IMG/VR virus record: IMGVR_UViG_3300026094_000002
DNA length: 64,000 bases
Direction: 5' to 3' (one strand)
DNA from: a virus
Lineage: Duplodnaviria > Caudoviricetes
Below are positions 40,844 to 63,706 of this stretch, in pieces. Both the position numbers and the translations under genes were made by a program. Each line of letters begins with the position of its first letter. The first letter of the stretch is position 1. The notes below the pieces were generated by a model. The model had not been told where the DNA came from and searched no databases. It worked only from the letters and a program-made list of their open reading frames with translations.

Positions 40844-43234
40844 TCACCCCAAAATTGTTTGATCTGGGAACAACAAATACTTATCCAGACGATCATCATC
40901 TATATACGAAACTTCATCTATACTACTGACTTCATTCCACGTCTGTGTTTCAGCATCCCAGAATTGTGTTCCTGCACCTTCTAATACATAACGCTCTACA
41001 TCAAAATCAACTTTGTTGAGTTCGCGTCCAATAAATTCACGTATGCGATAAGCGAGTTTTTCTCCTTCACCCGGTTTTACATATGCTATAACCCACGCTG
41101 GGACAAAGCCCAGCGGACGACCATCTTCTTGTTTGCTCGTCATCCAGTCAGGCAACACAAAATCACGCAGTCCGATAGAATCAAATAGTTGATTACGCAT
41201 ATTTACAAGACTGTTTGGATACAGTGTATCTGTTTGGCTTCCATCACGTAATGTAACTGTATTTGGCCATTCAATTTCTTCTGGAATACTTTCTAAATCG
41301 CGGTTAAGAGCAAGATCATTTATCTCACTATAGATAACTTCATATTTCACTGTGCCATCATCATTTAATGCTCTTGCTGTTTTTATTGAACCTAACACAA
41401 TACGTTTCCGAAAATGATTTTGGGACAATGCCGTGACATATTCATCTAATGTTTTTGGATTTAGCCCAAATGCGTGTTGATAGATTACAGAATCTGCAAT
41501 ACCAAAATTTGGGTCATTTCTGCGATAAACGGAATCAGGCGGAATAACATCACGGTTAAACAATAAACCATCAATCAAATCACGATCATTGCGTGGAGGA
41601 AGTGCTTTAATGTATATTGATTGCTGTGGAACCGCATCAGAATAATCTACTGTTACAGAAAAATCTCTAAGGGTAGATATAAATCCATCTTGTGTGAAAA
41701 CTTCTACCGTAAATGCGTAATCTTTTAATAAAGATGAGTCAGGGTCAATCACTGAACCAACACCATTAAATATACCAGCAATCTCGCCAGTTGAAAGTAG
41801 TGTTGTTCCCGGTGGCAAACTTCCTTGATTTAGGCGATAAAACAGTGGTTCATCATAAGATGATTCTGCTACCGTTTCTAACTCACTTATCACACCAGAA
41901 TTCACAGTACCCAAGTTTTCTGGCGATAGCCAAGTTATAAACTTCTCTATCTCACCAATAACTCTTAGTGTAAATGTGTTCGGTTCTGCATCAACCCATT
42001 CTTCTCCATTGAAAACTCTTGGTTTAACAAAGTATTTTTCAGACGATACAATTGTTGCACTATCTAATATAGGTCCATCATCAACTTTTCTGATTTTGAG
42101 TTCTTCGCCTTCTACAAACTCTACAGAAGATGTTTTTTGGACTACGAGCGTATTTGATTTTGGAGAACTGGTTACTACTCCTGTTGGTGTTTCTCCTGAT
42201 ACACTAACTCCATCCTGAGAAACATAATATCCACTTTGAACATTAACAACAATATCGTCATCAAGAACAATCTCATAAAAAATTGAATTTGCTTTTGTGA
42301 CAGTCACATCAAATGAAAAATTACGCTCAACTGCACCTTGGCTAGGTAGATATCCGTACAACCAACCAGTTGATCCTTCAAATTCTAAGCCATCTGGTAT
42401 AGTACCATCTAAAATAAATTCAATTGGATCACCATCAAAATCTAATGCATCAAATTTAAACGCATAATAGTTGTCTGCACGAACAGTTCCTAAGTCGGTT
42501 TCGGTTGTGGTCAAAACCGGCGGTCTTTCTGGAATAACATCGGCAGTTATGAATGTATTGTCACCAGTATTATTTGTATTATCTGATGTCATAGCATCAA
42601 CTGCATATACAAATATTTCAAATGTTCTTATGTTTGATTGTTTCCCATCAGAAACCTCTAATGTAAATTCGTAATTTTTTGAAACACTGTTATTACTGAA
42701 ATCAAAATCAAATTCATCAAATGCAGTAACGTCATATCCATCCCCTTCTGACGGACGGCGAAACGGCTCAATAAACCCTGAAATGTTACCATCCGAACTT
42801 AGTGTTAGGCCCGGTGGCAATTCTCCTGATAAAAGATCTACAGTTAGAGTTTCACCCGGATCAGTGTCTGTATAATCAACTGTAATATCAACTTTACTAC
42901 CATCATAGAATGTGCCTATTCTGCCAGATGATGTTATAAATTCTGGTTCATCTTGTCCTTGAACCGTAAGGTTAAATGTTCTATCTGCTATATTTCCAGA
43001 TTCATCGGTCGCTCTAACAACAAAAGTAGAAACAACATTTTTTGAAACTAAATCTGGAATTCCAGAAATTCTACCATCAGATCTAAGTGTCAATCCCGGA
43101 GGTAACTCTCCAGATATTATAGCATAAGATACTGAACTTTCTGACTCTGCTTCTAAAATTTTGCTATAGATAACACTTTCGGGAATTGTTCCCAAAGAAC
43201 CAGAATTCGTTACCCAACTAAGTACTGCAGACAT
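40844..43234 (-). CDS. baseplate wedge-like protein with putative Ig repeats
   Basis: Repeated SGELPPGLTL..G.ISG.P units. Confidence 0.7.
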   Translation of the reverse strand: MSAVLSWVTNSGSLGTIPESVIYSKILEAESESSVSYAIISGELPPGLTLRSDGRISGIPDLVSKNVVSTFVVRATDESGNIADRTFNLTVQGQDEPEFITSSGRIGTFYDGSKVDITVDYTDTDPGETLTVDLLSGELPPGLTLSSDGNISGFIEPFRRPSEGDGYDVTAFDEFDFDFSNNSVSKNYEFTLEVSDGKQSNIRTFEIFVYAVDAMTSDNTNNTGDNTFITADVIPERPPVLTTTETDLGTVRADNYYAFKFDALDFDGDPIEFILDGTIPDGLEFEGSTGWLYGYLPSQGAVERNFSFDVTVTKANSIFYEIVLDDDIVVNVQSGYYVSQDGVSVSGETPTGVVTSSPKSNTLVVQKTSSVEFVEGEELKIRKVDDGPILDSATIVSSEKYFVKPRVFNGEEWVDAEPNTFTLRVIGEIEKFITWLSPENLGTVNSGVISELETVAESSYDEPLFYRLNQGSLPPGTTLLSTGEIAGIFNGVGSVIDPDSSLLKDYAFTVEVFTQDGFISTLRDFSVTVDYSDAVPQQSIYIKALPPRNDRDLIDGLLFNRDVIPPDSVYRRNDPNFGIADSVIYQHAFGLNPKTLDEYVTALSQNHFRKRIVLGSIKTARALNDDGTVKYEVIYSEINDLALNRDLESIPEEIEWPNTVTLRDGSQTDTLYPNSLVNMRNQLFDSIGLRDFVLPDWMTSKQEDGRPLGFVPAWVIAYVKPGEGEKLAYRIREFIGRELNKVDFDVERYVLEGAGTQFWDAETQTWNEVSSIDEVSYIDDDRLDKYLLFPDQTILG

Positions 43235-45102
43235 TATACCCTCCCGACTGCAATCTCAACTGTTCCGCTATTGCCTTCAAAATTTTCTAATGATTTACCT
43301 ATTATGGTTCCGGGTTTGGGGTTTTCTTCTGCTCTGGCGTGTCCATCCCCATTTGAAACAAGAATTGATCCTTTTTTAATTTTTCCAGTAACCAAACAAG
43401 GTACTCGTCCTTGTAGTGCTACAGGGAGAGAAAAACTTTTGTTGTCAGATTCTAATGCTGTGTTCATAAGATATGCTGGATTTGTAGATATTACACCTGC
43501 TACTGCTGCATCTGAATCTATTTTGGATACTGTGACTTCACTTTCTCCACCAAAGGAGACCACAGTTCCCTGAGAATATTCACGATCAGAAAGATAGTTT
43601 TCGGCTAAGTCCGCATATTGAGCAGTTGTAGATGTTCCAGCGAAAATTGACGCACTAAGTGTTGAAGTTGATGGATTGTAAATAAAACCCGGGCTATCAA
43701 CAAATAAAGTATCTACATCTCCAGATGAACCAATCAAGAATGGCACAAAGAAGTTTGCAAATGCTGATGTGTCTTCAATCGGAACCTCACTCCCGGGCCC
43801 TGTGGCACCTTGGGGTCCGGTTGCACCTTGCGGTCCTTCTATACCAGTTGCACCTGTAGCACCTACTGGACCGTCCGAACCTGACAAACCCTCTGGGCCA
43901 GTAGCACCTGTTGGGCCCTCGGGTCCTGTCGCACCAGTTTCGCCCTCTGGGCCAATGGAGCCTTGCGGGCCCTCGATACCAGTTGCACCTGTGGCACCAG
44001 TAGCACCTTCAGCAGCAAACTCGCCCGGGATCCCTGTGGCACCGGTTGGACCGGTGGAGCCTGTGGCACCAGTAGCACCGCCGGGGTCGCCTTGTGGGCC
44101 TTCTGGGCCAGTGGCACCAGTGGCACCAACCCCTGTGGCACCTGTTGGCCCCACTTCTCCCTCGGGTCCTGTAGCACCTGTGGCACCGCCGGGGTCACCC
44201 TGAGGCCCCGTCGCACCAGTTAGCCCGATAGGTCCAGTCGCACCCGTGGCACCAAGACCTGTGGCACCCGTGGCACCGGTAGCACCGCCGGGGTCACCCT
44301 GAGGCCCTGTCGCACCGATTGTTCCCGGGTCGCCTGTTGCACCCATTACCCCTGTCGCACCCGTTGGACCAGTTGCACCAGTAGCACCTGCACCAGTTGC
44401 ACCTTGTGGTCCAGTTGCACCCTGTGGTCCTGTTAAGCCAGTGGCACCAAGTCCTGTGGAGCCTTGGGCACCTGTGGCACCTTGTGCTCCGGTTGCACCG
44501 GTTAGACCTGTTGCCCCCGTTTGTCCTTGTGGGCCTGTTGCACCCGGGACACCTGCAGCACCAGATAAATTAACCGTCCACTCAGAATAAGTTCCAGAGC
44601 CATTTGCTATATCAATTTCAGCCGTCATTGATCCTGTTGCTTCATCATAACTTGAAACAACACCAGTCATATCATTGCTCAAATCATGAACTATTATGAC
44701 TGGTTGCCCTGAAGACCACGCTAAATCTGTATCTACTGTTAATGTTTTTGATCCAGTGCCAATAGTCAATTCTGTTGTTGAGGATGTTGAGTATTGATCA
44801 CCAACTGGTCCCTCAACACCAGTTGCCCCTGTTGGACCTTCTGCCCCAGTTGCACCGATGCCCCCCTGTAGTCCGGTAGCACCTTGGTCTCCTTCAGGTC
44901 CTGTTGGACCAGTTGCACCTGTTGCACCTACACCAGATTGCCAAGCACGGTTGCCATCTGTGTCACTGGTTATAAAAAACCCGGGTCCCGGGGGTACCCC
45001 AAGATCTGGCTCTGCTTGTGCCAAATCTAAAAATTCATACCGGTCTTCACTGACTTCAGTGGGTGATATTTTTTTGACTTTTCCTGATAATAATTTTGAC
45101 AT
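43234..45102 (-). CDS. collagen-like tail fibre protein with C-terminal chaperone-like domain
   Basis: Long GATG/GPTG triplets; C-terminal [27 protein letters not shown]. Confidence 0.85.
43790..44934 (-). repeat. GC-rich Gly-X-Y collagen repeats in two blocks
   Basis: GATG triplets; [14 protein letters not shown] occurs three times. Confidence 0.9.
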
Positions 45103-45108
45103 AGTTTA

Positions 45109-45435
45109 TTAATTTTCTGATTCTAATATGCTTAACACCAACTGTATCGCATTATTTTGGCTGCCAGATACGGATATACTTTGGCTTTCCTTTAGTACCA
45201 ATTTCCCCGTCAATAATCCAGAAGAATCATTACTTGGAATGCCACTTTCAAAAGCCAAATAAGTTGTACTGCCACCTGATGTTTCAAGTGCTAATGTTAT
45301 ATTAGATGTATCAGACGTTACATTTGTGGCTTGAGCTAATATAACTATTGCACTAAATCCAATCGGTGCTGTATATATTGTTTCAGTTGTGTCTGTTACG
45401 CTATGTCTAACGTTTTCAAATCTGTTAAGAGCCAT
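45109..45435 (-). CDS. small virion-associated hypothetical protein
   Basis: Beta-rich 108 aa in the tail operon. Confidence 0.6.
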   Translation of the reverse strand: MALNRFENVRHSVTDTTETIYTAPIGFSAIVILAQATNVTSDTSNITLALETSGGSTTYLAFESGIPSNDSSGLLTGKLVLKESQSISVSGSQNNAIQLVLSILESEN

Positions 45436-45438
45436 CTT

Positions 45439-46734
45439 TTATCCTTCAATCGATAGTATGTATGGTGTTAATACGGCGAAGAGTGCTCGGTCAAATGCAT
45501 CCCCTTCAAGTGTTCCTGTTCTGCCGTTAATGGTAAGGTCATCACCAATTTGGAAATTTCCTCGGTGATCTGTGCTGGAATATATTACAGTTCCACCATC
45601 TTCTGTAACCACTTCATTTTCTTGTATTGCTATACCACCAGTTTGTGGTAGTGCATCTTGTAATTGGTTTCCTGCCCCCACAAACTCAAACGTATGAGAA
45701 CTGGCTGTAATTGTGCTTCTTTTATAAAATTTTACAGGTGTATTATCAGAAATCGGATTTACGATTGTATCGCCTATTGTGATTGTCACTTCGCCATTGT
45801 CTAATTCTGTAGTATCAATAACATTAAAAATCGTGGTTCCACCATCAAAACTCACGGATTGATCTATGTTGGGGCGTTCATCTAAACCATCAATAACAAA
45901 TGTTCTGCCAAACTGATCAACACCATTTGTAGCACCGTCATTTTCCATATCAACTTTTCCTCTGGAAAGTAATCCAAAGGTTCCGAAACTGGTGTTACTA
46001 TTTGTCAAACTGCATAAACCACCACTTTCGCATAATATTCCTATCTGTGTGCAAATAGTAAAAATACTAACTAATTGTGCATAACCTTGATTAAGAAGAT
46101 GAACACCTGTGCCACCGGAGTTAAATTGTGTAAAGGCATCTGCAACCATTGATCTGTTGCCTTGGGCCAAACTACCGTCTATTCGCATACCAGTACCAGT
46201 TGTAGTAATACTGGAACAGTTTTGAACATATGGGCTGGTATTAATTGATCCTGCACCTCCGCTGGGATAAGCAATTGCAGAAGCCGGGGAGACATGATCT
46301 CTAAAAGTCATATTGGCGATATAATCAGCGTTTTGTATATGAAATATATCTTGGTCTGTGATTTCTGGTCTTATAGTGACACTACGAAGACTATCGCCTA
46401 CGATACTCAATCGTGGAGGACAAACAATTGGGTTATCTTCTGTGTAATCCCCTGATTTGACAAATATACAAGCACGTCTATCAGTATTTTCATCTAAAAA
46501 TGCGGTTGCTACTTGTACAGCACGTTTAACCGTTAAGAATGCTTTGCCAAGTGAATCACCATTGTTGGAATCATCACCGTTTTTAGAAACATAATAGACA
46601 TTTTCTGCTACACCACCCAACTGTCTATTATATAACTCGTTAAAGTTTTGGTTTGTTTTGTCAAATGCCTCACGAATTGGATCGCCTAATTTGTCATTAG
46701 GTGCAAAACCAATATCGATAAACTGCTGGCCCAT
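45439..46734 (-). CDS. tail fibre/spike protein, beta-helix-like
   Basis: GDPIREAFDKTNQNF, YYVSKNGDDSNNG, IVGDSLRSV, SPYVQNCSS. Confidence 0.7.
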   Translation of the reverse strand: MGQQFIDIGFAPNDKLGDPIREAFDKTNQNFNELYNRQLGGVAENVYYVSKNGDDSNNGDSLGKAFLTVKRAVQVATAFLDENTDRRACIFVKSGDYTEDNPIVCPPRLSIVGDSLRSVTIRPEITDQDIFHIQNADYIANMTFRDHVSPASAIAYPSGGAGSINTSPYVQNCSSITTTGTGMRIDGSLAQGNRSMVADAFTQFNSGGTGVHLLNQGYAQLVSIFTICTQIGILCESGGLCSLTNSNTSFGTFGLLSRGKVDMENDGATNGVDQFGRTFVIDGLDERPNIDQSVSFDGGTTIFNVIDTTELDNGEVTITIGDTIVNPISDNTPVKFYKRSTITASSHTFEFVGAGNQLQDALPQTGGIAIQENEVVTEDGGTVIYSSTDHRGNFQIGDDLTINGRTGTLEGDAFDRALFAVLTPYILSIEG

Positions 46735-48471: not shown

Positions 48472-49041
48472 TTAGTAGTCATTAAGACGGATATTAATAG
48501 CATCCCAATTGACAATACGCCAAAAATTATTGACATATTTCTTTTTGTCCGCACGATAATCTAATGCAAATGAATGTTCCCACATATCAAGCGGAAGCAA
48601 TACATCATTTCTGACAGCGTGATTTTTGATTGTTTTAATATCACCTGAGCGTGAAAGATACACCCATCCAGACCCTTGGATTGACATAGCAGTTTTAAGC
48701 CATTCTTCTTTGAAATCTTCAAAGCTTCCGTGTTTGTCATGGATTAGTGCCAATGCAGAACCAGTTGGTCGATTGTTTTTTCTGGGTGCCTGTAATTGTG
48801 GAAAGAAAAGATTATGCAGATAACTGCCAGCACGATTGAATTCAGGGTCACCTTCGCCAGCATTGTACTTTTTTGCATAGTTTTTGGCCAGTGTATCATA
48901 ATGATATCTTATGGTATCTTCACTCATTACCGGCTCAAGGGCATCCCTTTCATACGGCAGAGGTGCAGTATCAAGACGCTTTGGCTTCTCAACTGCCTCA
49001 ATTAAATTTAGTTCGTTACGGATATTGTTTGCTATATTCAC
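48472..49041 (-). CDS. sod: Fe/Mn superoxide dismutase with N-terminal leader
   Basis: PLPYERDALEP, H of RYHY, HNLFF, GSGW, DMWEH; all four metal ligands present. Confidence 0.88.
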   Translation of the reverse strand: MNIANNIRNELNLIEAVEKPKRLDTAPLPYERDALEPVMSEDTIRYHYDTLAKNYAKKYNAGEGDPEFNRAGSYLHNLFFPQLQAPRKNNRPTGSALALIHDKHGSFEDFKEEWLKTAMSIQGSGWVYLSRSGDIKTIKNHAVRNDVLLPLDMWEHSFALDYRADKKKYVNNFWRIVNWDAINIRLNDY

Positions 49042-49065
49042 GATAATATTTATTGTCTATTGAAT

Positions 49066-51336: not shown

Positions 51337-51378
51337 CCATTTATTTAAGTGTGACGGATATAAAATTAAACACTATAC

Positions 51379-51816: not shown

Positions 51817-51837
51817 GAAAATGGAATAAATAAATTC

Positions 51838-52623
51838 ATGCAAGAAGTGATTAAGATAGAATTTCGTGAGCGGTGTGCACTTTTTGCACGTATGAGTTCA
51901 ATTGTATATCACGATGTTGATAATGTGGTTAATAAATTAGAAAATACTGAATTTCGGTTAATGAATTCATATGATACCGATGGCTCTCAAGCATTTAGTT
52001 TTATATCTGAAACTGATTTAATTGTTGCGTGTAGAGGAACAGAGCCCGATTGTTGGGCTGATTTAAAAGCCGACCTGCGTGCTTGGCCTAAAAAGTCGTC
52101 ATCTGGTGGTCGAGTTCATAGTGGATTTTCGTGGCACGTATCAAAGATTTGGCCGCAAATTGTTGCTGATTTAGAAACTGCAAAAGCACAGGGCCTAAAT
52201 GTTTGGTTTACTGGTCATTCATTAGGTGGTGCAATGGCAACAATTTTAGCGTCTCGTTGCCGACACGATGAGACACTTCCTGATCCAGTTCAACTCTACA
52301 CTTTCGGTTCTCCAAGAGTAGGATGGCCGAAGTATGTTGATTCTCTTGCTATCAACCATGTGCGATGGGTTAATAATAATGACGCGGTTGCATACTTACC
52401 GCCCCGCATAATGGGATACAAACACCATGGATTTGAATATTATTTGAATGCTTGGGGAAATGTTCGTTCTCCCACATTGTGGCAACGAATTAAAGACAAG
52501 TTTCGTGGTTATTGGTTCGCATGGAAGCAAGGAAAAATTGATTCATTTTCTGATCACAGTATCTCAGATTATGTAAAACATCTTGAGAGACATGCCGAAG
52601 GTTTAGAAGTATTACAAAGATAG
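51838..52623 (+). CDS. class 3 lipase
   Basis: VACRGT, VHSGF, WFTGHSLGG, YTFGSPRVG, NDAV..LP, DHSI. Confidence 0.9.
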   Translation: MQEVIKIEFRERCALFARMSSIVYHDVDNVVNKLENTEFRLMNSYDTDGSQAFSFISETDLIVACRGTEPDCWADLKADLRAWPKKSSSGGRVHSGFSWHVSKIWPQIVADLETAKAQGLNVWFTGHSLGGAMATILASRCRHDETLPDPVQLYTFGSPRVGWPKYVDSLAINHVRWVNNNDAVAYLPPRIMGYKHHGFEYYLNAWGNVRSPTLWQRIKDKFRGYWFAWKQGKIDSFSDHSISDYVKHLERHAEGLEVLQR

Positions 52624-52627
52624 TACT

Positions 52628-54193
52628 TTAATCAATTCTTGGCGGTACTGTAAATGTGTGTGCTGGTGCAGGTGATGGTACTTCCCACTCTAGACCGTCC
52701 GCCCCTTCCCACGCTCTTGCATCTGCATTATTTTTGCCTCGGATACATTGCCATACTATAGCAAGAAACAATAGTTGGGTAAGACCGAATCCAAATCCAC
52801 CTATTGAACTAATCATATTCCAATCTGCAAACTGAACAGAATAGTCTGGTATGCGTCTTGGCATTCCTGCTAATCCTAAAAAATGTTGAGGGAAGAACAG
52901 TACATTCACAAATATTGTGCTGAGCCAAAAGTGCCACTGACCCAGTCTTTCTGAATAACGAGTGCCCGACCACTTTGGGAGCCAGTAATATGCCGCCGCT
53001 AATATTGCGAATACCGCTCCAGTTACCAAGACATAGTGAAAGTGTGCTACAACGAAATAGGTATCATGATACTGAAAATCTGCAGGAGCAATTGCTAGCA
53101 TTAAGCCAGAGAATCCACCTATTGTAAACAAGAATACAAATGCAAGAGCGAATAGCATTGGTGTTTCAAATGTCATAGCACCACGCCACATTGTGGCAAC
53201 CCAATTAAAGACTTTCACTCCAGTGGGAACTGATATCAACATTGTGGCATACATGAAGAAAAGTGTTCCTGCGAGCGGCATTCCTACAGTAAACATATGA
53301 TGTGCCCACACAATAAATGACAGGAACGCAATACTAGCAGTAGCATAAACCATTGAACTATATCCAAACAGTGGCTTACGAGCAAATGTAGGCAATATTG
53401 TAGATATAATACCAAATGCTGGCAGTATCATAATATAGACTTCTGGATGACCAAAAAACCAAAATATATGCTGATAAAGAACTGGGTCACCACCACCGGC
53501 TGCAGAGAAAAATGAAGTACCAAAGTACTGGTCGGTTAATAGCATTGTCACAGCACCAGACAGCACAGGCATAACAGCAATCATAAGATATGCAGTTACC
53601 AACCAAGTCCATGTAAAGATAGGCATCTTCATGAGAGTCATTCCGGGTGCTCTCATGTTTAATATGGTAGCCACAATATTAATTGAACCCATAATTGATG
53701 AAATGCCTAAAATGTGTATTGAGAATATAACAAATGGAAATGCCATGCCTGTTTGTAACATAAGGGGAGGATACATTGTCCATCCTCCCGCAGGACCACC
53801 GCCGGGCATGAATAGTGTTGAAAGTAGTACGGCAAACGCAAATGGCATTAGCCAGAAACTCCAGTTATTCATCCGGGGTAGGGCCATATCAGGTGCCCCT
53901 ATTTGCATGGGTATCATCCAGTTTGCTAAGCCAGTAAATGCTGGCATTACCGCACCAAAAATCATCACAAGAGCGTGCATAGTGGTCATTTGATTATAGA
54001 ATAATGGATCAACCAATTGCATACCGGGCATAAAAAGTTCTGCTCTTATGACCATTGCCATTGCACCACCAACAAAGAACATCAACAAACTCCACAGTAG
54101 GTACATTGATCCAATCTCTTTGTGGTTTGTAGTGGTTAGCCATCGTTTAATGCCGGTCGGCTCTATGTGTTCTGGTTGTGCTACGGTATCCAT
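52628..54193 (-). CDS. coxA: cytochrome c oxidase subunit I (aa3, A1 type)
   Basis: [42 protein letters not shown]; 521 aa, full length. Confidence 0.97.
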
Positions 54194-54196
54194 TGT

Positions 54197-54652
54197 TTAG
54201 ACTCCTACTGGTCCTATAAATTGTTTTAATTCTCGTGCAAGACTCTTCTGCTCGTCTGCGTCTAAAAATTCTGCAAATTCTACTTTATCACTTTTACAGT
54301 GTAAAAATAATCTTGTGTGTTTCCACCTTCTTGGTACATTTTCTAATATTACTTCGCACCATATTTTTTCAAAAGAAATAGAACTTGATTTTGTTTTTCT
54401 TCCTTTTTCTAATGTCACTGTTGTTCGGTCTATATGCAGTACATTTTTCTCAAAACTTTTTTCTGCTGAGTACCATAAACTAGCAGCCACAAGTAAAAAT
54501 TCTGCTCCAGCAAATGGCACTATTAACCACAAGCCCAATTGAAAAAAATATAAAGATATAGAGAATAAAACGATTCCTAACAATGCCAAAAATCTTATTG
54601 ACAACCGCCAATCAGATTGAAATGACGGAGAAATAACATAGGTTTTATTCAT
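54197..54652 (-). CDS. DUF2244-like membrane protein
   Basis: ISPS..two transmembrane helices GLWLIVPFAGAEF..; C-terminal VEFAEFLDADEQKSLA. Confidence 0.7.
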   Translation of the reverse strand: MNKTYVISPSFQSDWRLSIRFLALLGIVLFSISLYFFQLGLWLIVPFAGAEFLLVAASLWYSAEKSFEKNVLHIDRTTVTLEKGRKTKSSSISFEKIWCEVILENVPRRWKHTRLFLHCKSDKVEFAEFLDADEQKSLARELKQFIGPVGV

Positions 54653-54659
54653 TACGAAC

Positions 54660-54665
54660 TATTTA
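54660..54665 (-). promoter_or_regulatory. late promoter TAAATA of the DUF2244-coxA unit
   Basis: 7 nt upstream of ATG 54652; same motif precedes many late genes. Confidence 0.6.
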
Positions 54666-54715: not shown

Positions 54716-55375
54716 ATGCTTATTAAAGAATTATTTGAAGCAGACAGAACCTATTCTGGAGACCCACTTGAAAAAGGTGGCACATCTATTAAAGGACAAG
54801 GTGCTGCTCCAGTCATCAAAAATCTTGCTGGCAAGGGAATATTCCAAGGTAAAACAGTGCTTGATTATGGTGCCGGAAAGTATGGCAGAAATGCAGAAGC
54901 AATCAAAGCAGCCGGTGGAACTGTCTATGCCTATGACCCATTTCACGGCAGTGGCTCTGATGGTTGGAATAGTGTTGCAGGAACACTTCCAGATAATAAA
55001 TTTGACATTGCATTTACCAGTTATGTTTTAAATGTGGTTCCAGAAAAAACCGAAGACCAAATATTGCGTGATGTAGAATCTCGCTCTAATAATATTTTAC
55101 ACATTACAAGAAATATGGATATATTTCAATCAGTTAAGAAAGCATTAATAAGAAAGGATAGTACGGTTGGCAATTTCTTTTTAGAACAGTTTGCCAATGA
55201 ACAAGAACGCGAGGCATTTGAAGAAGGTACGCTTAATGATGAAACTATATTAGAGTTTTGCAAACACGGTGTCCAGACTTCACGTGGTTTTCAGCGAATA
55301 CCAGAACTTGAAAATAAGGGATATAATTTAAAACAAAATACAGTTGGTTATAAACTTTATACTAGAGGAATGTAA
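54716..55375 (+). CDS. class I SAM-dependent methyltransferase with MLIKELFE leader
   Basis: VLDYGAGK, YAYDP, FTSYVLNVV; TAAATA at 54703-54708. Confidence 0.75.
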   Translation: MLIKELFEADRTYSGDPLEKGGTSIKGQGAAPVIKNLAGKGIFQGKTVLDYGAGKYGRNAEAIKAAGGTVYAYDPFHGSGSDGWNSVAGTLPDNKFDIAFTSYVLNVVPEKTEDQILRDVESRSNNILHITRNMDIFQSVKKALIRKDSTVGNFFLEQFANEQEREAFEEGTLNDETILEFCKHGVQTSRGFQRIPELENKGYNLKQNTVGYKLYTRGM

Positions 55376-55380
55376 ATAAA

Positions 55381-56550
55381 TTAGTAAATTTTGAGAAGAC
55401 TGTTTAATTCAGGATGAGAATCAACTAATTTTTCTTCACGAAATAAATCTATTCTTTTAATTTCAGATTTTAATTCATTAAAATAATCAAAATTAGATTC
55501 ACCATCATTCATAAATTTAATAATATTATTAATATCATCGGTATCGTGAGGTAACAAGGCTTCTTCAATTTTTTCTTTTATGTCTTGCGGCAGATACTTG
55601 ACACAAAATCGTTCTTCAACAATTAACATACTCCAATTAATATGCATTAGGGGATAATGTTCTTTCATCCATCTTATAATTTTTTTAAAGTCTAATATAT
55701 TAAAAACGCTGACAGTCATATTACATGATAATGAGATATTTGTATTTTTATTAGCCAACTGCTCAAATGCATCCAAGTTTTTAACTAATGTATTCCAATC
55801 AGATTTTGATCTTTCATATTCAAATTTTTCAAAGATATTATCTATACTAACCATTATATCAACACTTTTGAATTTTTTCCAACTTTCAATAATATCTTTA
55901 TTTGGTAATATTGTTCCATTAGTAACATAGTCTATTTCAATATTTGAAACATCGCTAGTATTTGAAAATTTTTCAAGTAGTTGAAAGTGCTGATTTATCA
56001 GGAACGGTTCACCACCATAAAAACTTATTTTGGATAATAATGGAAGGTAATTTTCTAAATCCTCCCAAAATACTTTTGATGTTATAGGCCATTGTCCTTT
56101 TTTAAGAATTTCAAATTCAAACGAACTGCGTTTTTCTTCATCAGAATGGGTTTTTAATTCATTTTTTGCCCAGATACTACTTGCCCACGGCCCACATATT
56201 CGACACCGCAAATTGCATATGTTTCCAAATGCAATTGATAAACTGCTAAATTGACTTTGAACATCACCATTAAAATCAGTTTCTTTTTGCCTCAAACTCA
56301 TAATACCATTATCTTCTTCTTGCCAGCATTGAGCACAGGAAATAGGTTTTTTATTGTTTGATAAATCAGAGCGTAATTTTTTTAGATGATTGCTATTATA
56401 AATCTCATAAAAAGAATTTTTATTAACATTAAATTCTAAATTGTTTTTATCTTTAAGCCTATCACCCCAAATACAACATGGTGCTACACTACCATCCGCA
56501 TTAATTTCTAAGTTTTTCCATGGCTTACTACAAAAAGTTTCAGACAACAT
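55381..56550 (-). CDS. twitch/SPASM-domain radical SAM protein
   Basis: FCSKPW..PCC..CAQCW, CNLRCRIC, FYGGEPF, TNG; AT-rich. Confidence 0.88.
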   Translation of the reverse strand: MLSETFCSKPWKNLEINADGSVAPCCIWGDRLKDKNNLEFNVNKNSFYEIYNSNHLKKLRSDLSNNKKPISCAQCWQEEDNGIMSLRQKETDFNGDVQSQFSSLSIAFGNICNLRCRICGPWASSIWAKNELKTHSDEEKRSSFEFEILKKGQWPITSKVFWEDLENYLPLLSKISFYGGEPFLINQHFQLLEKFSNTSDVSNIEIDYVTNGTILPNKDIIESWKKFKSVDIMVSIDNIFEKFEYERSKSDWNTLVKNLDAFEQLANKNTNISLSCNMTVSVFNILDFKKIIRWMKEHYPLMHINWSMLIVEERFCVKYLPQDIKEKIEEALLPHDTDDINNIIKFMNDGESNFDYFNELKSEIKRIDLFREEKLVDSHPELNSLLKIY

Positions 56551-56554
56551 AATT

Positions 56555-58105
56555 TTAATTTATTTCTGCTTGAACTTGGAAGAATTCGAGTTCAGGATCA
56601 TCATCACCAAAACTAACACTATCACTAACATCCATAGAGAAGTTTAAGCCACGCTTTTCTGCTATCTTCTGAACATTATTTAACATTTGCATTGACTTTT
56701 TATGGGGACTTGTAATTAGAGTCTTGCCGTTTTGCATTGCCGATATCAACATATTGATAAATGTTTTTACATCTTCAATATCGTTTTTAAGAAGTCGTCT
56801 ACTTTTACTATTGATACCGATAAGAAAGATTTCTTCTGGTGTTTCATACCATTGCGTCACAAAGTTGCCAGTGCCTGACTTCATTGTTTTTAATTCACCA
56901 TTAGGATAAAACGCTTGTAATGCTTGTTTGCTTTGTTTGGCTAAATCAACAACTTCTGGAGATTTATCACCAAAGTTTTTTTGTGTTAATTCATCATACT
57001 CTTCACTTGAGGTGGATGAAACATCTTCTTGAACTTCGTCGTCAATATCAAAAAATTCTTTGTACTTGTTCCAAGGTGGTTGATATTGTTTAATTTGTTC
57101 TTCCGCTTCTGGCCACCTACCTTTGATAAAATCACGTGCATACGCAAAAGCATAGTATGGATTTTGTTTAATCGCTTCTTCACCTTCTGGCCACCTACCT
57201 TTGATAAAATCACGTGCATACATAAAAGCATATTGTGGGCTTTGTTTAATCGCTTCTTCACCCTCTGGAAATCTGCCACCGATAGCGTCATCGGCATAAT
57301 AATAAGCTTTTCTTGGGTCCTGTTTAATCGCTTCTTCACTTTTGGCAAATACCTTTTTAAGCACTGGATGTTTGGTTCTAAAATATTGCAGCAATTCAGA
57401 GTCTATTCTTTCGTCGTTTTCGTCCATGAATTGGAAATCTTCACCAAAATGAAATTGGAACTTGTTGCTTTGTTTTTTCTCTGGCATCTTGCGTGAAGGA
57501 ATCCACACATATAAAGGACCTTGCTTTGAATAGTTTCTAAACATATTATCTGACTGAGTGGCAGCCGTACACCAACGAGTACCACTACCAATTTCACAAG
57601 AAGCCTCGGTAGTACGTGGAATAATTAACTGTCCCATATCTCCGACATAAAGCACCTCCATATCGTCAATATGTTCATAATCAAGATTCGCATCAACTGG
57701 TTCTTCTAAATCAGTGGCTTTTTTGAGTTTAGTGGCAATTTCTCGCAAATCACGCCAAGTGTATTTGTTTATATCCGTCTCAATACCAAGTTGTTGCTTT
57801 CTTTGCTTTGGTAACTCGTGAAAATCTTGGATATCATTGCGTAAAAACTCATTGATATCTTCAAGCTTCAAACTATTTTTCACAAACTGACGAACAATCC
57901 ATAGAACATATTTTTTATTAGGGGTGGGGTCAACGGATTCTATTCTACTCAGAACATTTTGACTAAGAGCATAAATTTGTTCTGGTGCAAGTTCTTCGTC
58001 TTTAATTCGTGGGTTGTCCAATTTTGCAGTATTCGCGATAGCAGTACCCATTTGTTCAATGGTTTTGTCTCGGTCATACTCAAAAAGAAATTCTTTTGAA
58101 CGCAT
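56555..58105 (-). CDS. modular late protein (MRSKEFLFE leader; WCTAA domain; 22-aa repeats)
   Basis: TAAATA 4 nt upstream of ATG 58105; GSGTRWCTAA. Confidence 0.7.
   Translation of the reverse strand: MRSKEFLFEYDRDKTIEQMGTAIANTAKLDNPRIKDEELAPEQIYALSQNVLSRIESVDPTPNKKYVLWIVRQFVKNSLKLEDINEFLRNDIQDFHELPKQRKQQLGIETDINKYTWRDLREIATKLKKATDLEEPVDANLDYEHIDDMEVLYVGDMGQLIIPRTTEASCEIGSGTRWCTAATQSDNMFRNYSKQGPLYVWIPSRKMPEKKQSNKFQFHFGEDFQFMDENDERIDSELLQYFRTKHPVLKKVFAKSEEAIKQDPRKAYYYADDAIGGRFPEGEEAIKQSPQYAFMYARDFIKGRWPEGEEAIKQNPYYAFAYARDFIKGRWPEAEEQIKQYQPPWNKYKEFFDIDDEVQEDVSSTSSEEYDELTQKNFGDKSPEVVDLAKQSKQALQAFYPNGELKTMKSGTGNFVTQWYETPEEIFLIGINSKSRRLLKNDIEDVKTFINMLISAMQNGKTLITSPHKKSMQMLNNVQKIAEKRGLNFSMDVSDSVSFGDDDPELEFFQVQAEIN
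57086..57350 (-). repeat. 66-bp coding tandem repeat (A.xYARDFIKGRWPE.EE.IKQ)
   Basis: tctggccacctacctttgataaaatcacgtgcatac recurs at a 66 bp spacing; about 3.5 units. Confidence 0.85.
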
Positions 58106-58229
58106 AAAGTATTTATTAATTATAAACATAACAATAAATAGAAGCGGAAAGATAAGTTCTACCTGACATCTGGCAAAGACCGGGGCGACCGCCTTACAAG
58201 TCATCGTTTTACATTAAAGGAATTAAAAA

Positions 58230-62202: not shown

Positions 62203-62433
62203 TTATAAGGAAAAAAGAGTTTCGTCTGTCTTACCCGCATTCCAGCGATCTACTGCGTCTTGCTTGCTGGAGCCATAAACGATTCTGCCACAACCAGTGT
62301 TATGAATTTGACAAACCACATTCCATTCTGTGAAATCGCCGGTGGAATGATCACGCTTACTGGGATAAAGGGTGTCAATCAGTTCCCAATTTGCATTCCA
62401 ATCTTTACCACATTTGATGCAAGGGTCAATCAT
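62203..62433 (-). CDS. Lar-like (restriction alleviation) zinc-ribbon protein
   Basis: CIKCG..VVC....GCG..SKQDAVDRWN. Confidence 0.55.
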   Translation of the reverse strand: MIDPCIKCGKDWNANWELIDTLYPSKRDHSTGDFTEWNVVCQIHNTGCGRIVYGSSKQDAVDRWNAGKTDETLFSL

Positions 62434-63706
62434 TTTTTATTTCCTCTAATGCATCAGCAAACTGATCCACTGCCCATTCAATTTGATCTTCTGTGACAAT
62501 GAGTGGTGGAATCCAGCGAATAACATTGCCACCCCAAGGGCCACACTTGATCATGATTAACCCTTTATGCTCAAGAATTTTCAGCATCTTAGCTGCTCTT
62601 TCACCACCGGTCATAATATCTGTATCCGCAAGGTGAGTTCCAATCATTAGACCTTTGCCAGTTACAGCAACAATTTCTGGGTGCCTACGCTGCAAGAACA
62701 GCAATTTTTCTTTTAGTTTAGCACCCATCTTGGCAGCGTTTTCTACTAAGTTTTCGTCACGAATAACATCCAGAGTGGCTAATCCTGCAGCACAAGCCAC
62801 TGCATTACCACCATATGTGCCACCTTGAGATCCCGGAAAGGCTTTGTTCATAAGTTCTCGTGGTGCAGCCATGAATGATAACTGAAAGCCGCTTGCAACA
62901 CCTTTAGCAGATACCACCACATCGGGCGTAACATTATAGTGTTCAAAACCCCACATTTTACCAGTTCTGCCATTACCTGCCTGTACTTCGTCCATGATCA
63001 GCAAAATGCCGTGTTTTTTACAACGCTCTTCCAGTCCCTGCATGAAACGCTTGCTTGCAGTGATATATCCTGCTTCTCCCTGAATGCTTTCTATCAGCAT
63101 TGCAGCAGTTTCCATAGGCACACTCTGCACCTGCAGGATATAATCAAGTTCACGCAAACAGAAGTCTGCAGCCTCATCCTCTGTCATATTATACCAATTA
63201 GTGTCGGGGAAAGGTGCCGTTACAACGCCACCCATCATAGGCTGCACACCCTGACGAACAGCAGCACTCGAGGTAGTTGTGCTTAGACTTCCCATAGTCC
63301 TACCGTGGAAGCAGCCACGGAAAGCAATAATATTTGGCTTGCCGGTTGCCTGTCGTGCCAGTCGGATTGATGCTTCCACTGCCTCTGTTCCTGCACTTGA
63401 AAAGAATACAGAATTTATAGAATCAGGCAATAATTCACAAATTCGATCTGACAATTCTAAAATAGGGCGATGCTTCATAATAGCATACTGGGCATGCACT
63501 ACTTTATCAATCTGATCCTTTGCAGCCTCAATAACTTTTGGGTGAGAATGCCCTGTGCTTAAAACGCCAATTCCCGAAGAAAAATCCATATATCCCTTGC
63601 CATCTTCTCCCCATACATACATGCCTTCAGCATGATCTACAACAACGTCAGATGTTTGGCGTAGCAGTGGGGAAAGATGATGTTCGTGTTCGCTTGTGTT
63701 TTGCAT
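62426..63706 (-). CDS. gabT: class III PLP aminotransferase (4-aminobutyrate transaminase-like)
   Basis: YMDFSSGIG, SAGTEAVE, FHGRT, ESIQGEAG, DEVQAGNGRTG, SAKG, GTYGGN. Confidence 0.85.
   Translation of the reverse strand: MQNTSEHEHHLSPLLRQTSDVVVDHAEGMYVWGEDGKGYMDFSSGIGVLSTGHSHPKVIEAAKDQIDKVVHAQYAIMKHRPILELSDRICELLPDSINSVFFSSAGTEAVEASIRLARQATGKPNIIAFRGCFHGRTMGSLSTTTSSAAVRQGVQPMMGGVVTAPFPDTNWYNMTEDEAADFCLRELDYILQVQSVPMETAAMLIESIQGEAGYITASKRFMQGLEERCKKHGILLIMDEVQAGNGRTGKMWGFEHYNVTPDVVVSAKGVASGFQLSFMAAPRELMNKAFPGSQGGTYGGNAVACAAGLATLDVIRDENLVENAAKMGAKLKEKLLFLQRRHPEIVAVTGKGLMIGTHLADTDIMTGGERAAKMLKILEHKGLIMIKCGPWGGNVIRWIPPLIVTEDQIEWAVDQFADALEEIKND

Follow-up and report, generated by a model that had tools for sequence, protein, structure and literature searches.

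A T4-related jumbo phage carries an intact cytochrome c oxidase subunit I gene beside a DUF2244 gene of probable Spiribacter-like origin

Introduction

Among the auxiliary metabolic genes of cyanophages are psbA and psbD, which encode the photosystem II core proteins D1 and D2, and such phage-borne photosystem core genes have reshaped the understanding of infected cyanobacteria. The respiratory equivalent has so far amounted to a handful of virome reads. Here we describe a locus in a 64,000-nucleotide stretch (hereafter the window) of IMG/VR virus record IMGVR_UViG_3300026094_000002 (Duplodnaviria; Caudoviricetes), in which coxA (ctaD), the gene for subunit I of an aa3-type cytochrome c oxidase, lies directly downstream of a gene for a DUF2244 membrane protein. 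An earlier note, made from the letters of the sequence, had proposed this coxA as a possible respiratory counterpart of psbA.

Reads of coxA, petB and cydA have been reported from viromes (Roux et al. 2013, PMC3877843), and reads of cbb3 oxidase subunit I from the marine viral fraction (Williamson et al. 2012, PMC3474794). The former include coxA and petB, as does the phage lineage described here, as few reads in uncontaminated viromes; the latter belong to a C-type oxidase, which is another family. Both reports are at the level of reads, in contrast to the present locus, and come without genome context, phylogeny or selection analysis. In the literature searched, outside which many subscription papers lie, we found no genome-resolved phage aa3 coxA, no DUF2244 partner and no related cassettes, only these read-level hints. 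Phages of 155–338 kb that encode amoC likewise contribute just one of the several subunits that make up a membrane enzyme of the host and depend on the host for the others (bioRxiv 10.64898/2026.06.18.733297), but the enzyme and the host guild are different, and coxA encodes the metal- and heme-bearing catalytic subunit itself.

The closest comparison is with psbA and psbD. Here too the phage has its own version of the catalytic core, with its cofactor sites, of an energy-converting membrane complex of the host. The gene is host-derived, adapted in composition and under purifying selection, and its product is expected to assemble with host partners; and just as the cyanophage genes track the host lineage, phage coxA shows two host-matched origins. 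In contrast, the gene described here encodes a respiratory heme-copper oxidase in the phage of a heterotroph rather than part of a photosystem, CoxA is not known to be damaged and replaced in a fast cycle, and coxA travels with an operon-derived putative assembly factor, the DUF2244 protein. Furthermore, the function of phage psbA has been demonstrated, whereas that of phage coxA is read from its sequence. The locus seems to be a phage auxiliary metabolic operon, with which the phage habit of carrying core genes would extend from photosynthesis to aerobic respiration. Its unusual features are a putative helper gene captured together with coxA, the loss of an obligatory partner and host-matched re-acquisition. 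We consider it very likely that this coxA is real, selected, resident in the phage and functional.

Results

The phage gene encodes an intact A1-type oxidase subunit I

The 521-residue CoxA scored 535.8 bits against PF00115 (E 1e-160, cut-off 34.8), covering positions 2–435 of the 436 in the profile, and also exceeded the threshold of the NCBIfam equivalog TIGR02891, CtaD_CoxA (698.8 bits, cut-off 670.75). It aligns over its full length with the solved aa3 oxidases 7jro, 1ar1 and 1m56, and residues 16–519 align to the solved subunit I chains with few gaps, consistent with a complete 12-helix core. The ligand histidines were identified from sequence motifs and from the alignments with 1ar1 and 7jro: H73 and H386 are the heme a ligands, H384 is the ligand of heme a3, and H249, H298 and H299 are those of CuB. 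The sequence GHPEVY occupies residues 248–253, with E251 and the cross-linking tyrosine Y253, which assigns the protein to the A1 type. D102 and N109 of the D-pathway, T324 and K327 of the K-pathway, H376 and D377 of the Mg-site and the arginine pair R446/R447 are all present. Every ligand, HPEVY, D-pathway, K-pathway and arginine-pair residue named in the earlier note was located in this way, and the stop-to-ATG gap of 3 nt that it gave between the DUF2244 gene and coxA was read again in the sequence.

Conservation extends well beyond the cofactor sites. Conservation of 97% or more among 195 cellular homologues is found at 233 positions; phage CoxA has the same residue at 229 of them, and the other four carry conservative substitutions. 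Substitutions characteristic of the phage clade at cell-conserved positions are E26, Y66, Q97, V199, M204 and a change at position 487. As encoded, phage CoxA would be a competent catalytic core.

One contig of run X3 has 133 unlike letters in place of approximately the first 130 nt of coxA (window 54063–54196), and the N-terminus of CoxA is also dissimilar between phage copies; the extreme N-terminus therefore appears to be strain-variable.

coxA is resident in a phage genome

The source record is a linear virus sequence of 194.5 kb with a CheckV completeness of about 56%. It encodes a T4-family DNA polymerase, whose nearest cultured relatives are those of PA5oct-like Pseudomonas jumbo phages, Salicola phage SCTP-2 and Atu_ph07, together with baseplate wedge, tail-fibre and virion-protein-like genes; this gene content indicates that the DNA belongs to a T4-related jumbo phage. 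The guanine-plus-cytosine content at third codon positions (GC3) of coxA is 0.36, in a genome whose overall GC content is 0.367, whereas GC3 is 0.58 in the Spiribacter coxA and 0.55–0.99 in most of the other cellular homologues fetched. The base composition of coxA has drifted to the phage's own.

A chimeric assembly was assessed at the gene junctions. Contigs of three studies besides the likely source bridge both the DUF2244–coxA and the DUF2244–methyltransferase junctions, which contradicts a chimera. The third junction, between the lipase gene and coxA, is bridged only in the likely source run and in one X6 contig that lacks 91 nt there, and is supported independently by the assemblies of relatives. 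Related phages, in at least five assemblies made independently, have coxA among genes for a class-3 lipase, a methyltransferase, a 128-residue protein and a cell-wall hydrolase. Homologues of the class-3 lipase flank coxA in the relatives L002, L005, L090 and L091, and the methyltransferase-like neighbour is conserved in L090 with 78% identity. The flanks, which the earlier note had described as phage-style, are therefore made up of neighbours conserved across related phage contigs.

Two other apparent resemblances were set aside. CoxA matches in the cultured-phage database (40–46% identity), which bear the names of Listeria, Staphylococcus, Escherichia and Salmonella phages, are not relatives of this gene but mostly unannotated host-like contigs. 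A methyltransferase gene also stands upstream of DUF2244 in Spiribacter; it has no similarity to the phage methyltransferase, and the shared layout is a coincidence.

The pair probably derives from a Spiribacter-like cox operon and is under purifying selection

The closest named cellular CoxA sequences are those of Spiribacter and Sediminicurvatus, at 86–87% identity. In a maximum-likelihood tree the window copy and six phage-side sequences form a clade with 100/100 support, which is nested in the Spiribacter and Sediminicurvatus group (99/93) on a distinct branch of length 0.18. The gammaproteobacterial look that had been noted for the sequence can thus be narrowed to a Spiribacter-like source. 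Phage and host coxA differ by about 20% at the DNA level, and their synonymous sites are saturated although the proteins are 87% identical.

The Spiribacter operon reads methyltransferase, DUF2244, COX2, COX1, a 38-residue ORF, COX3, DUF2909, SURF1, a thioredoxin-like gene, CtaA and CtaB. The catalytic, D-pathway and K-pathway residues of CoxA and the upstream DUF2244 are common to phage and host; in contrast to the Spiribacter gene, the phage-encoded copy has no coxB between DUF2244 and coxA, is not accompanied in the record by coxC, SURF1, ctaA or ctaB, and has its GC3 of 0.36 against 0.58 or more. Of 80 other cellular loci, gammaproteobacterial and related, 27 likewise have a DUF2244 gene on the upstream side of coxA, at a distance of about the length of one gene. 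The phage DUF2244 protein is 36% identical to the one that heads the Spiribacter operon and about 40 residues shorter at the C-terminus. In a tree of DUF2244 the phage copies form a single clade (100/99), whose sister is the copy in the Spiribacter operon (97/97). Since DUF2244 and CoxA are both sister to Spiribacter sequences, which flank coxB in that operon, the likeliest history is that DUF2244-coxB-coxA was captured as a block from a host operon and that coxB was lost afterwards. The host order was one of the checks that the earlier note had named as bearing on coxB loss, and its outcome is positive.

Cytochrome b encoded by relatives of the phage is 85–88% identical to that of several named Spiribacter species, and Spiribacter contigs and the phage relatives are found in the same samples. 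On these grounds the host is most likely a Spiribacter-like halophilic gammaproteobacterium.

Pairwise Nei-Gojobori estimates of dN/dS among the phage copies of coxA are 0.024–0.041; at dS of 1.6–2.8, near saturation, these values are approximate. Even so, they exclude relaxed selection on coxA as far as such estimates go. DUF2244 likewise gave dN/dS of 0.15–0.19 among the phage copies.

The record encodes no recognisable oxidase partner

The minimal functional oxidase unit consists of subunits I and II (PMC8361435, PMC4256069). Neither COX2 nor COX3 gave a Pfam match in the 64-kb window or in the whole 194.5 kb record, which is about 56% complete. When the 12 genes of the Spiribacter cox operon were compared with the record, counterparts were found for COX1 and DUF2244 only, and the ORFs of the 80 other cellular cox loci gave no match beyond the same two. 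The absence of subunit II, subunit III and assembly factors from the 64 kb, as given in the earlier note, thereby held in these searches. The cytochrome b, KatG, metallophosphatase, alternative oxidase (AOX), COX2, CtaG, cytochrome c and SdhA-like flavoprotein carried by relatives (see below) have no counterpart in the record at its present completeness either. Cytochrome bd subunit I was looked for as well: PF01654 and PF02322 gave no match in the 194.5 kb record, nor did PF01654 in the records of the relatives L002–L004.

DUF2244 is modelled in contact with CoxA

The DUF2244 protein scored 87.9 bits against PF10003 (cut-off 27; Table 1). Its N-terminal part is hydrophobic, with two transmembrane helices as Pfam defines the family, and a soluble domain comes after it; all that the literature searched offers for the family is a proposal of two membrane helices and a bacterial PH-like domain (PMC2817789). 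A complex predicted from the phage DUF2244 and CoxA proteins scored 0.73, against 0.00 for the best of three controls. Of 78 solved complexes 51 reached that mark, as did 2 of 108 mismatched pairs. At least 75% of the contacts agree across three runs, with a pLDDT of 74 for the partner. No solved structure of any DUF2244 relative was found, and the score would therefore not reflect memory of a structure. The model supports the view that DUF2244 binds CoxA.

In the model, residues 11–66 of DUF2244, in its hydrophobic N-terminal part, contact CoxA residues 100–108, 167–187, 202–220 and 228–246, a surface formed by helices IV–VI and the loop around D102, the entry aspartate of the D-pathway. A loop of subunit III adjoins this same aspartate in the published oxidase (PMC8361435). 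Taken together, the modelled position at the D102 loop and the published place of the subunit III loop suggest that DUF2244 may guard this CoxA surface until subunit III docks. That DUF2244 was kept beside coxA while coxB was lost also suggests that it serves CoxA. The earlier idea that DUF2244 aids CoxA assembly gains indirect support from this co-retention, from purifying selection on both genes and from a complex model that passes its controls. This is a first functional lead for DUF2244, a gene that stands first in roughly one in three of the gammaproteobacterial cox operons sampled.

A late-promoter-like box precedes the pair

The full sequence TATAAATA is the late promoter of T4-type phages. 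The box upstream of DUF2244, read directly at 54665–54660 where the earlier note had placed it, lies in the context CTAAATAG, which has the TAAATA core and matches six of the eight T4 consensus positions; the full TATAAATA occurs only seven times in the genome. TAAATA is the most enriched upstream hexamer genome-wide, being found within 40 nt upstream of 45 of the 254 predicted genes against an expected 3.1, and is under-represented overall (134 copies, both strands). It precedes, among others, the baseplate wedge gene, a tail-fibre gene and a virion-protein-like gene. The motif resembles the T4-type late promoter, in a phage whose polymerase is T4-related.

The spacing between TAAATA and the start codon is bimodal, at 5–8 nt in 24 genes and 17–28 nt in about 19. 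Genes of the longer class have a Shine-Dalgarno sequence between the box and the start, whereas those of the shorter class have none. The spacing fits a -10-type element with transcription starting a few nucleotides downstream, and for the shorter class this would make many late mRNAs leaderless or nearly so. The DUF2244 box, with a spacing of 7 nt, falls in the shorter class. The reading of this box as a late promoter, put forward earlier, gains indirect support from the enrichment of the motif and its presence before baseplate and tail-fibre genes; late timing of DUF2244-coxA transcription is a reasonable inference from the same pattern. Sigma-70-type promoters and intrinsic terminators showed no enrichment over shuffled sequences at the locus.

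Related phages carry variable respiratory cassettes

Across relatives the locus is a variable respiratory and redox module, of which the present phage carries the minimal form, DUF2244-CoxA. In L090 and L091 the order is KatG, DUF2244, class-III aminotransferase, cytochrome b, CoxA and metallophosphatase (L090:1019-8567). The cytochrome b is of the bc1 type, with 413 residues, and the aminotransferase between DUF2244 and cytochrome b is 76% identical to the product of a gene at 62426–63706 in the window. L086–L089 (L086:3224-10739) have KatG, DUF2244 and cytochrome b; upstream of these, the long contigs L086 and L087 encode a 139-residue c-type cytochrome, a 589-residue SdhA/NadB-like flavoprotein and an IscA/ErpA-like protein. 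Both also have serine hydroxymethyltransferase (SHMT).

A different cassette is present in L003 (642–6472), a syntenic relative with five genes in common with this phage: AOX (189 residues), a ClpP-like protease, DUF454, COX2, COX1 and CtaG/Cox11, with phage-like GC3 values of 0.31–0.40. Its CoxA is of Oceanospirillales type and groups with Oceanospirillaceae-type sequences (100/95), and a single origin of all phage coxA copies was rejected (AU test, p about 1e-7). The trees indicate two or more acquisitions or replacements of coxA, from different lineages that in each case match the apparent host. Separate, host-matched origins are expected if a phage subunit must fit its host partners. The wider cassette of cytochrome b, KatG, coxB, ctaG and AOX lies beyond the account of the earlier note, and the coxA of the window is one variant of it.

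Discussion

The reading that best joins these observations, to which we assign a probability of about 0.6, is that the phage took a cox operon head from its host and uses it, late in infection, to sustain respiration through a hybrid oxidase, with DUF2244 as helper. The phage would have captured DUF2244-coxB-coxA, lost coxB and kept the remaining pair under purifying selection. The pair would be transcribed as a near-leaderless bicistronic message from the T4-type late-promoter box, with coxA translated from its own AGGAG. Host CtaA, CtaB, SURF1 and copper chaperones would load the phage CoxA with heme a, heme a3 and copper, while DUF2244 would bind the new protein through its two membrane helices and stabilise the intermediate until the other subunits dock. 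The phage CoxA would then join host CoxB and CoxC in a hybrid oxidase that sustains aerobic respiration and the energy supply once host gene expression fails. The integrity of the gene, its residence in a phage, its host source, selection, recurrence and the enrichment of the promoter motif are supported directly; when the pair is expressed, that the cofactors are loaded, that CoxA assembles with subunits of the host and that the infected cell benefits are what we infer. When the oxidase inactivates itself in turnover (suicide inactivation), the damage falls on subunit I (PMC8361435, PMC4256069), which offers a possible reason to resupply that subunit in particular.

Several points weigh against this reading. 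CoxA needs subunit II and none is present in the record, so that function rests on hybrid assembly with host subunits; and since the record is about 56% complete, coxB or other partners could lie elsewhere in the phage. The DUF2244-CoxA complex is a prediction only, and near-saturated dS makes the strength of selection approximate. The analogy with psbA is based on rapid turnover, which to our knowledge is not established for CoxA in bacteria. Finally, the non-pumping or stress-related AOX and KatG of the relatives and the superoxide dismutase of the phage fit a role in redox or oxygen management at least as well as one in energy supply.

This last point leads to the alternative that we take most seriously, although we consider it rather unlikely: the same hybrid oxidase would form, and its main benefit would lie in oxygen and redox management. 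Added terminal-oxidase capacity would bring down oxygen inside the cell and curb reactive oxygen species, a 'respiratory protection' of the many oxygen-sensitive Fe-S and radical-SAM enzymes of the phage. The company that coxA keeps is in its favour. An Fe/Mn superoxide dismutase is encoded 3.6 kb away, a gene for a twitch-domain radical SAM protein adjoins the locus, the same genome has an ErpA-type Fe-S insertion protein that exceeds its equivalog cut-off, KatG lies directly upstream of DUF2244 in relatives, and the AOX of L003 would consume oxygen without pumping protons. The choice of enzyme speaks the other way: an aa3 oxidase is the most strongly coupled and lower-affinity type, an unusual pick for scavenging oxygen, its proton-pumping residues are all conserved in the phage protein, and the relatives have, in addition, the cytochrome b of bc1, a complex that conserves energy. 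Both benefits could apply at once.

Conservation also bears on whether the phage subunit changes the enzyme it enters or blocks it. The near-complete conservation of CoxA argues that it maintains rather than alters function, and the intact proton-pathway residues speak against both of the other readings, a decoy and a deliberately altered enzyme. An alteration of the hybrid oxidase in oxygen affinity, pumping stoichiometry or regulation could be read into the distinct branch of the phage clade (0.18), its few clade-specific changes (the five named residues and position 487) and the strain-variable N-terminus; we judge it improbable, given that the changes are conservative and spare the ligand and pathway residues, that 229 of the 233 near-invariant positions are unchanged and that dN/dS of 0.024–0.041 gives no sign of adaptive change. 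Still less probable is that CoxA acts as a non-catalytic decoy or dominant-negative protein that titrates host CoxB, CoxC or assembly factors. Such a role would suit a subunit that stands alone in a record of about 56% completeness, and DUF2244, modelled by the D-pathway entry near the subunit III loop (PMC8361435), might hinder maturation if it were retained; yet a decoy would have no need of the six ligand histidines, the cross-linking tyrosine and the D- and K-pathway residues, which are kept at a dN/dS of 0.03, and the relative with coxB and ctaG beside coxA points to building an oxidase, not blocking one. We give least credence of all to an artefact or a passenger, that is, a chimera, cellular contamination or a recent non-functional capture in the course of being lost. 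Such caution is warranted in general, as many database CoxA matches labelled as phage are unannotated host-like contigs, and respiratory genes reported from viromes have been suspected of being contaminants (PMC3877843). In this case, however, a GC3 of 0.36 rather than the 0.58 of the Spiribacter copy, synonymous sites that are saturated with respect to the host although the protein is 87% identical, two of three junctions bridged by contigs of three further studies, at least five independent assemblies with coxA among the same phage genes and strong purifying selection among diverged phage copies all stand against it.

Beyond the hybrid-oxidase reading of this one locus, the relatives allow a bolder and more doubtful proposal, which we offer tentatively. 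The lineage may carry an exchangeable respiratory core kit, acquired anew or swapped to suit each host. It would comprise the cofactor-bearing catalytic subunits of host enzymes that oxidise quinol and cytochrome c (CoxA with or without CoxB and CtaG, cytochrome b, AOX) together with KatG, superoxide dismutase and ErpA, and DUF2244 may be a hitherto unrecognised CoxA-specific assembly chaperone in cells and phages alike. If so, infected cells would run a partly virus-encoded respiratory chain. Mitochondrial genomes almost always keep coxA and cytochrome b, the same two core genes as this phage lineage. The phage coxA in turn suggests which parts of the respiratory chain limit the virus-infected cell.

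Features of the locus and its surroundings

The coordinates of coxA, DUF2244 and their control elements are collected in Table 1 with those of neighbouring and other genes of the record that bear on the locus.

Table 1 Features of the coxA locus and of other genes in the record. Positions are those of the window unless marked otherwise.
Feature	Position	Strand	Basis and remarks
coxA/ctaD, A1-type aa3 cytochrome c oxidase subunit I, intact, 521 aa	52628..54193	-	PF00115, TIGR02891, residue alignment
AGGAG, ribosome-binding site of coxA	54202..54206	-	read from sequence; lies in the 3' part of the DUF2244 ORF, 8 nt from the coxA start codon
DUF2244 membrane protein, 151 aa, candidate CoxA-binding assembly/stabilising factor	54197..54652	-	PF10003, E 7e-25
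TAAATA box (context CTAAATAG), T4-type late-promoter-like -10 element	54660..54665	-	7 nt upstream of the DUF2244 ATG
Further TAAATA box sites	55376-55390, 51820-51837, 51337-51350, 49042-49055		examples of upstream boxes
Class-3 lipase	51838..52623	+	PF01764, E 1e-22; convergent with coxA, 4-nt gap; own ATAAATA box, spacing 5 nt
Methyltransferase-like gene	54716..55375	+	weak PF13489 match; divergent from DUF2244; own ATAAATAC box, spacing 7 nt
Twitch-domain radical SAM protein	55381-56550	-	NF033640, 298 bits; adjoins coxA locus
549-aa protein	56555-58204	-	no family match; 3-4 internal 'EGEEAIKQ...YA.DFIKGRWPE' repeats; conserved beside the locus in L090
Fe/Mn superoxide dismutase	48472-49041	-	Pfam N-terminal hairpin domain part-matched; own ATAAATA box; 3.6 kb from coxA
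Class-III aminotransferase, 426 aa	62426-63706	-	nearest GABA-/acetylornithine-type transaminases, all below NCBIfam cut-offs
ErpA-type Fe-S insertion protein	genome 140563-140889 (L100:14064-14390)		146.5 bits, equivalog cut-off 117; TATAAATA upstream, spacing 5 nt

An assignment of the class-III aminotransferase to the heme pathway as HemL was considered and dropped, the nearest NCBIfam families being transaminases of the GABA and acetylornithine types. The phage is present in runs X3–X9, which belong to lake and soil studies. No RNA run was listed among those containing coxA or the 4-kb locus, a result that does not bear on expression. Saltern and salt-lake runs contained only 0.10–0.14 of the sampled words and were not used as evidence of habitat. 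The GC content rises to 0.47–0.51 at window positions 43000–46000, over collagen-like, repeat-rich tail-fibre genes (43234–45102 and 45439–46734), while the genome outside this rise has 30–40% GC.

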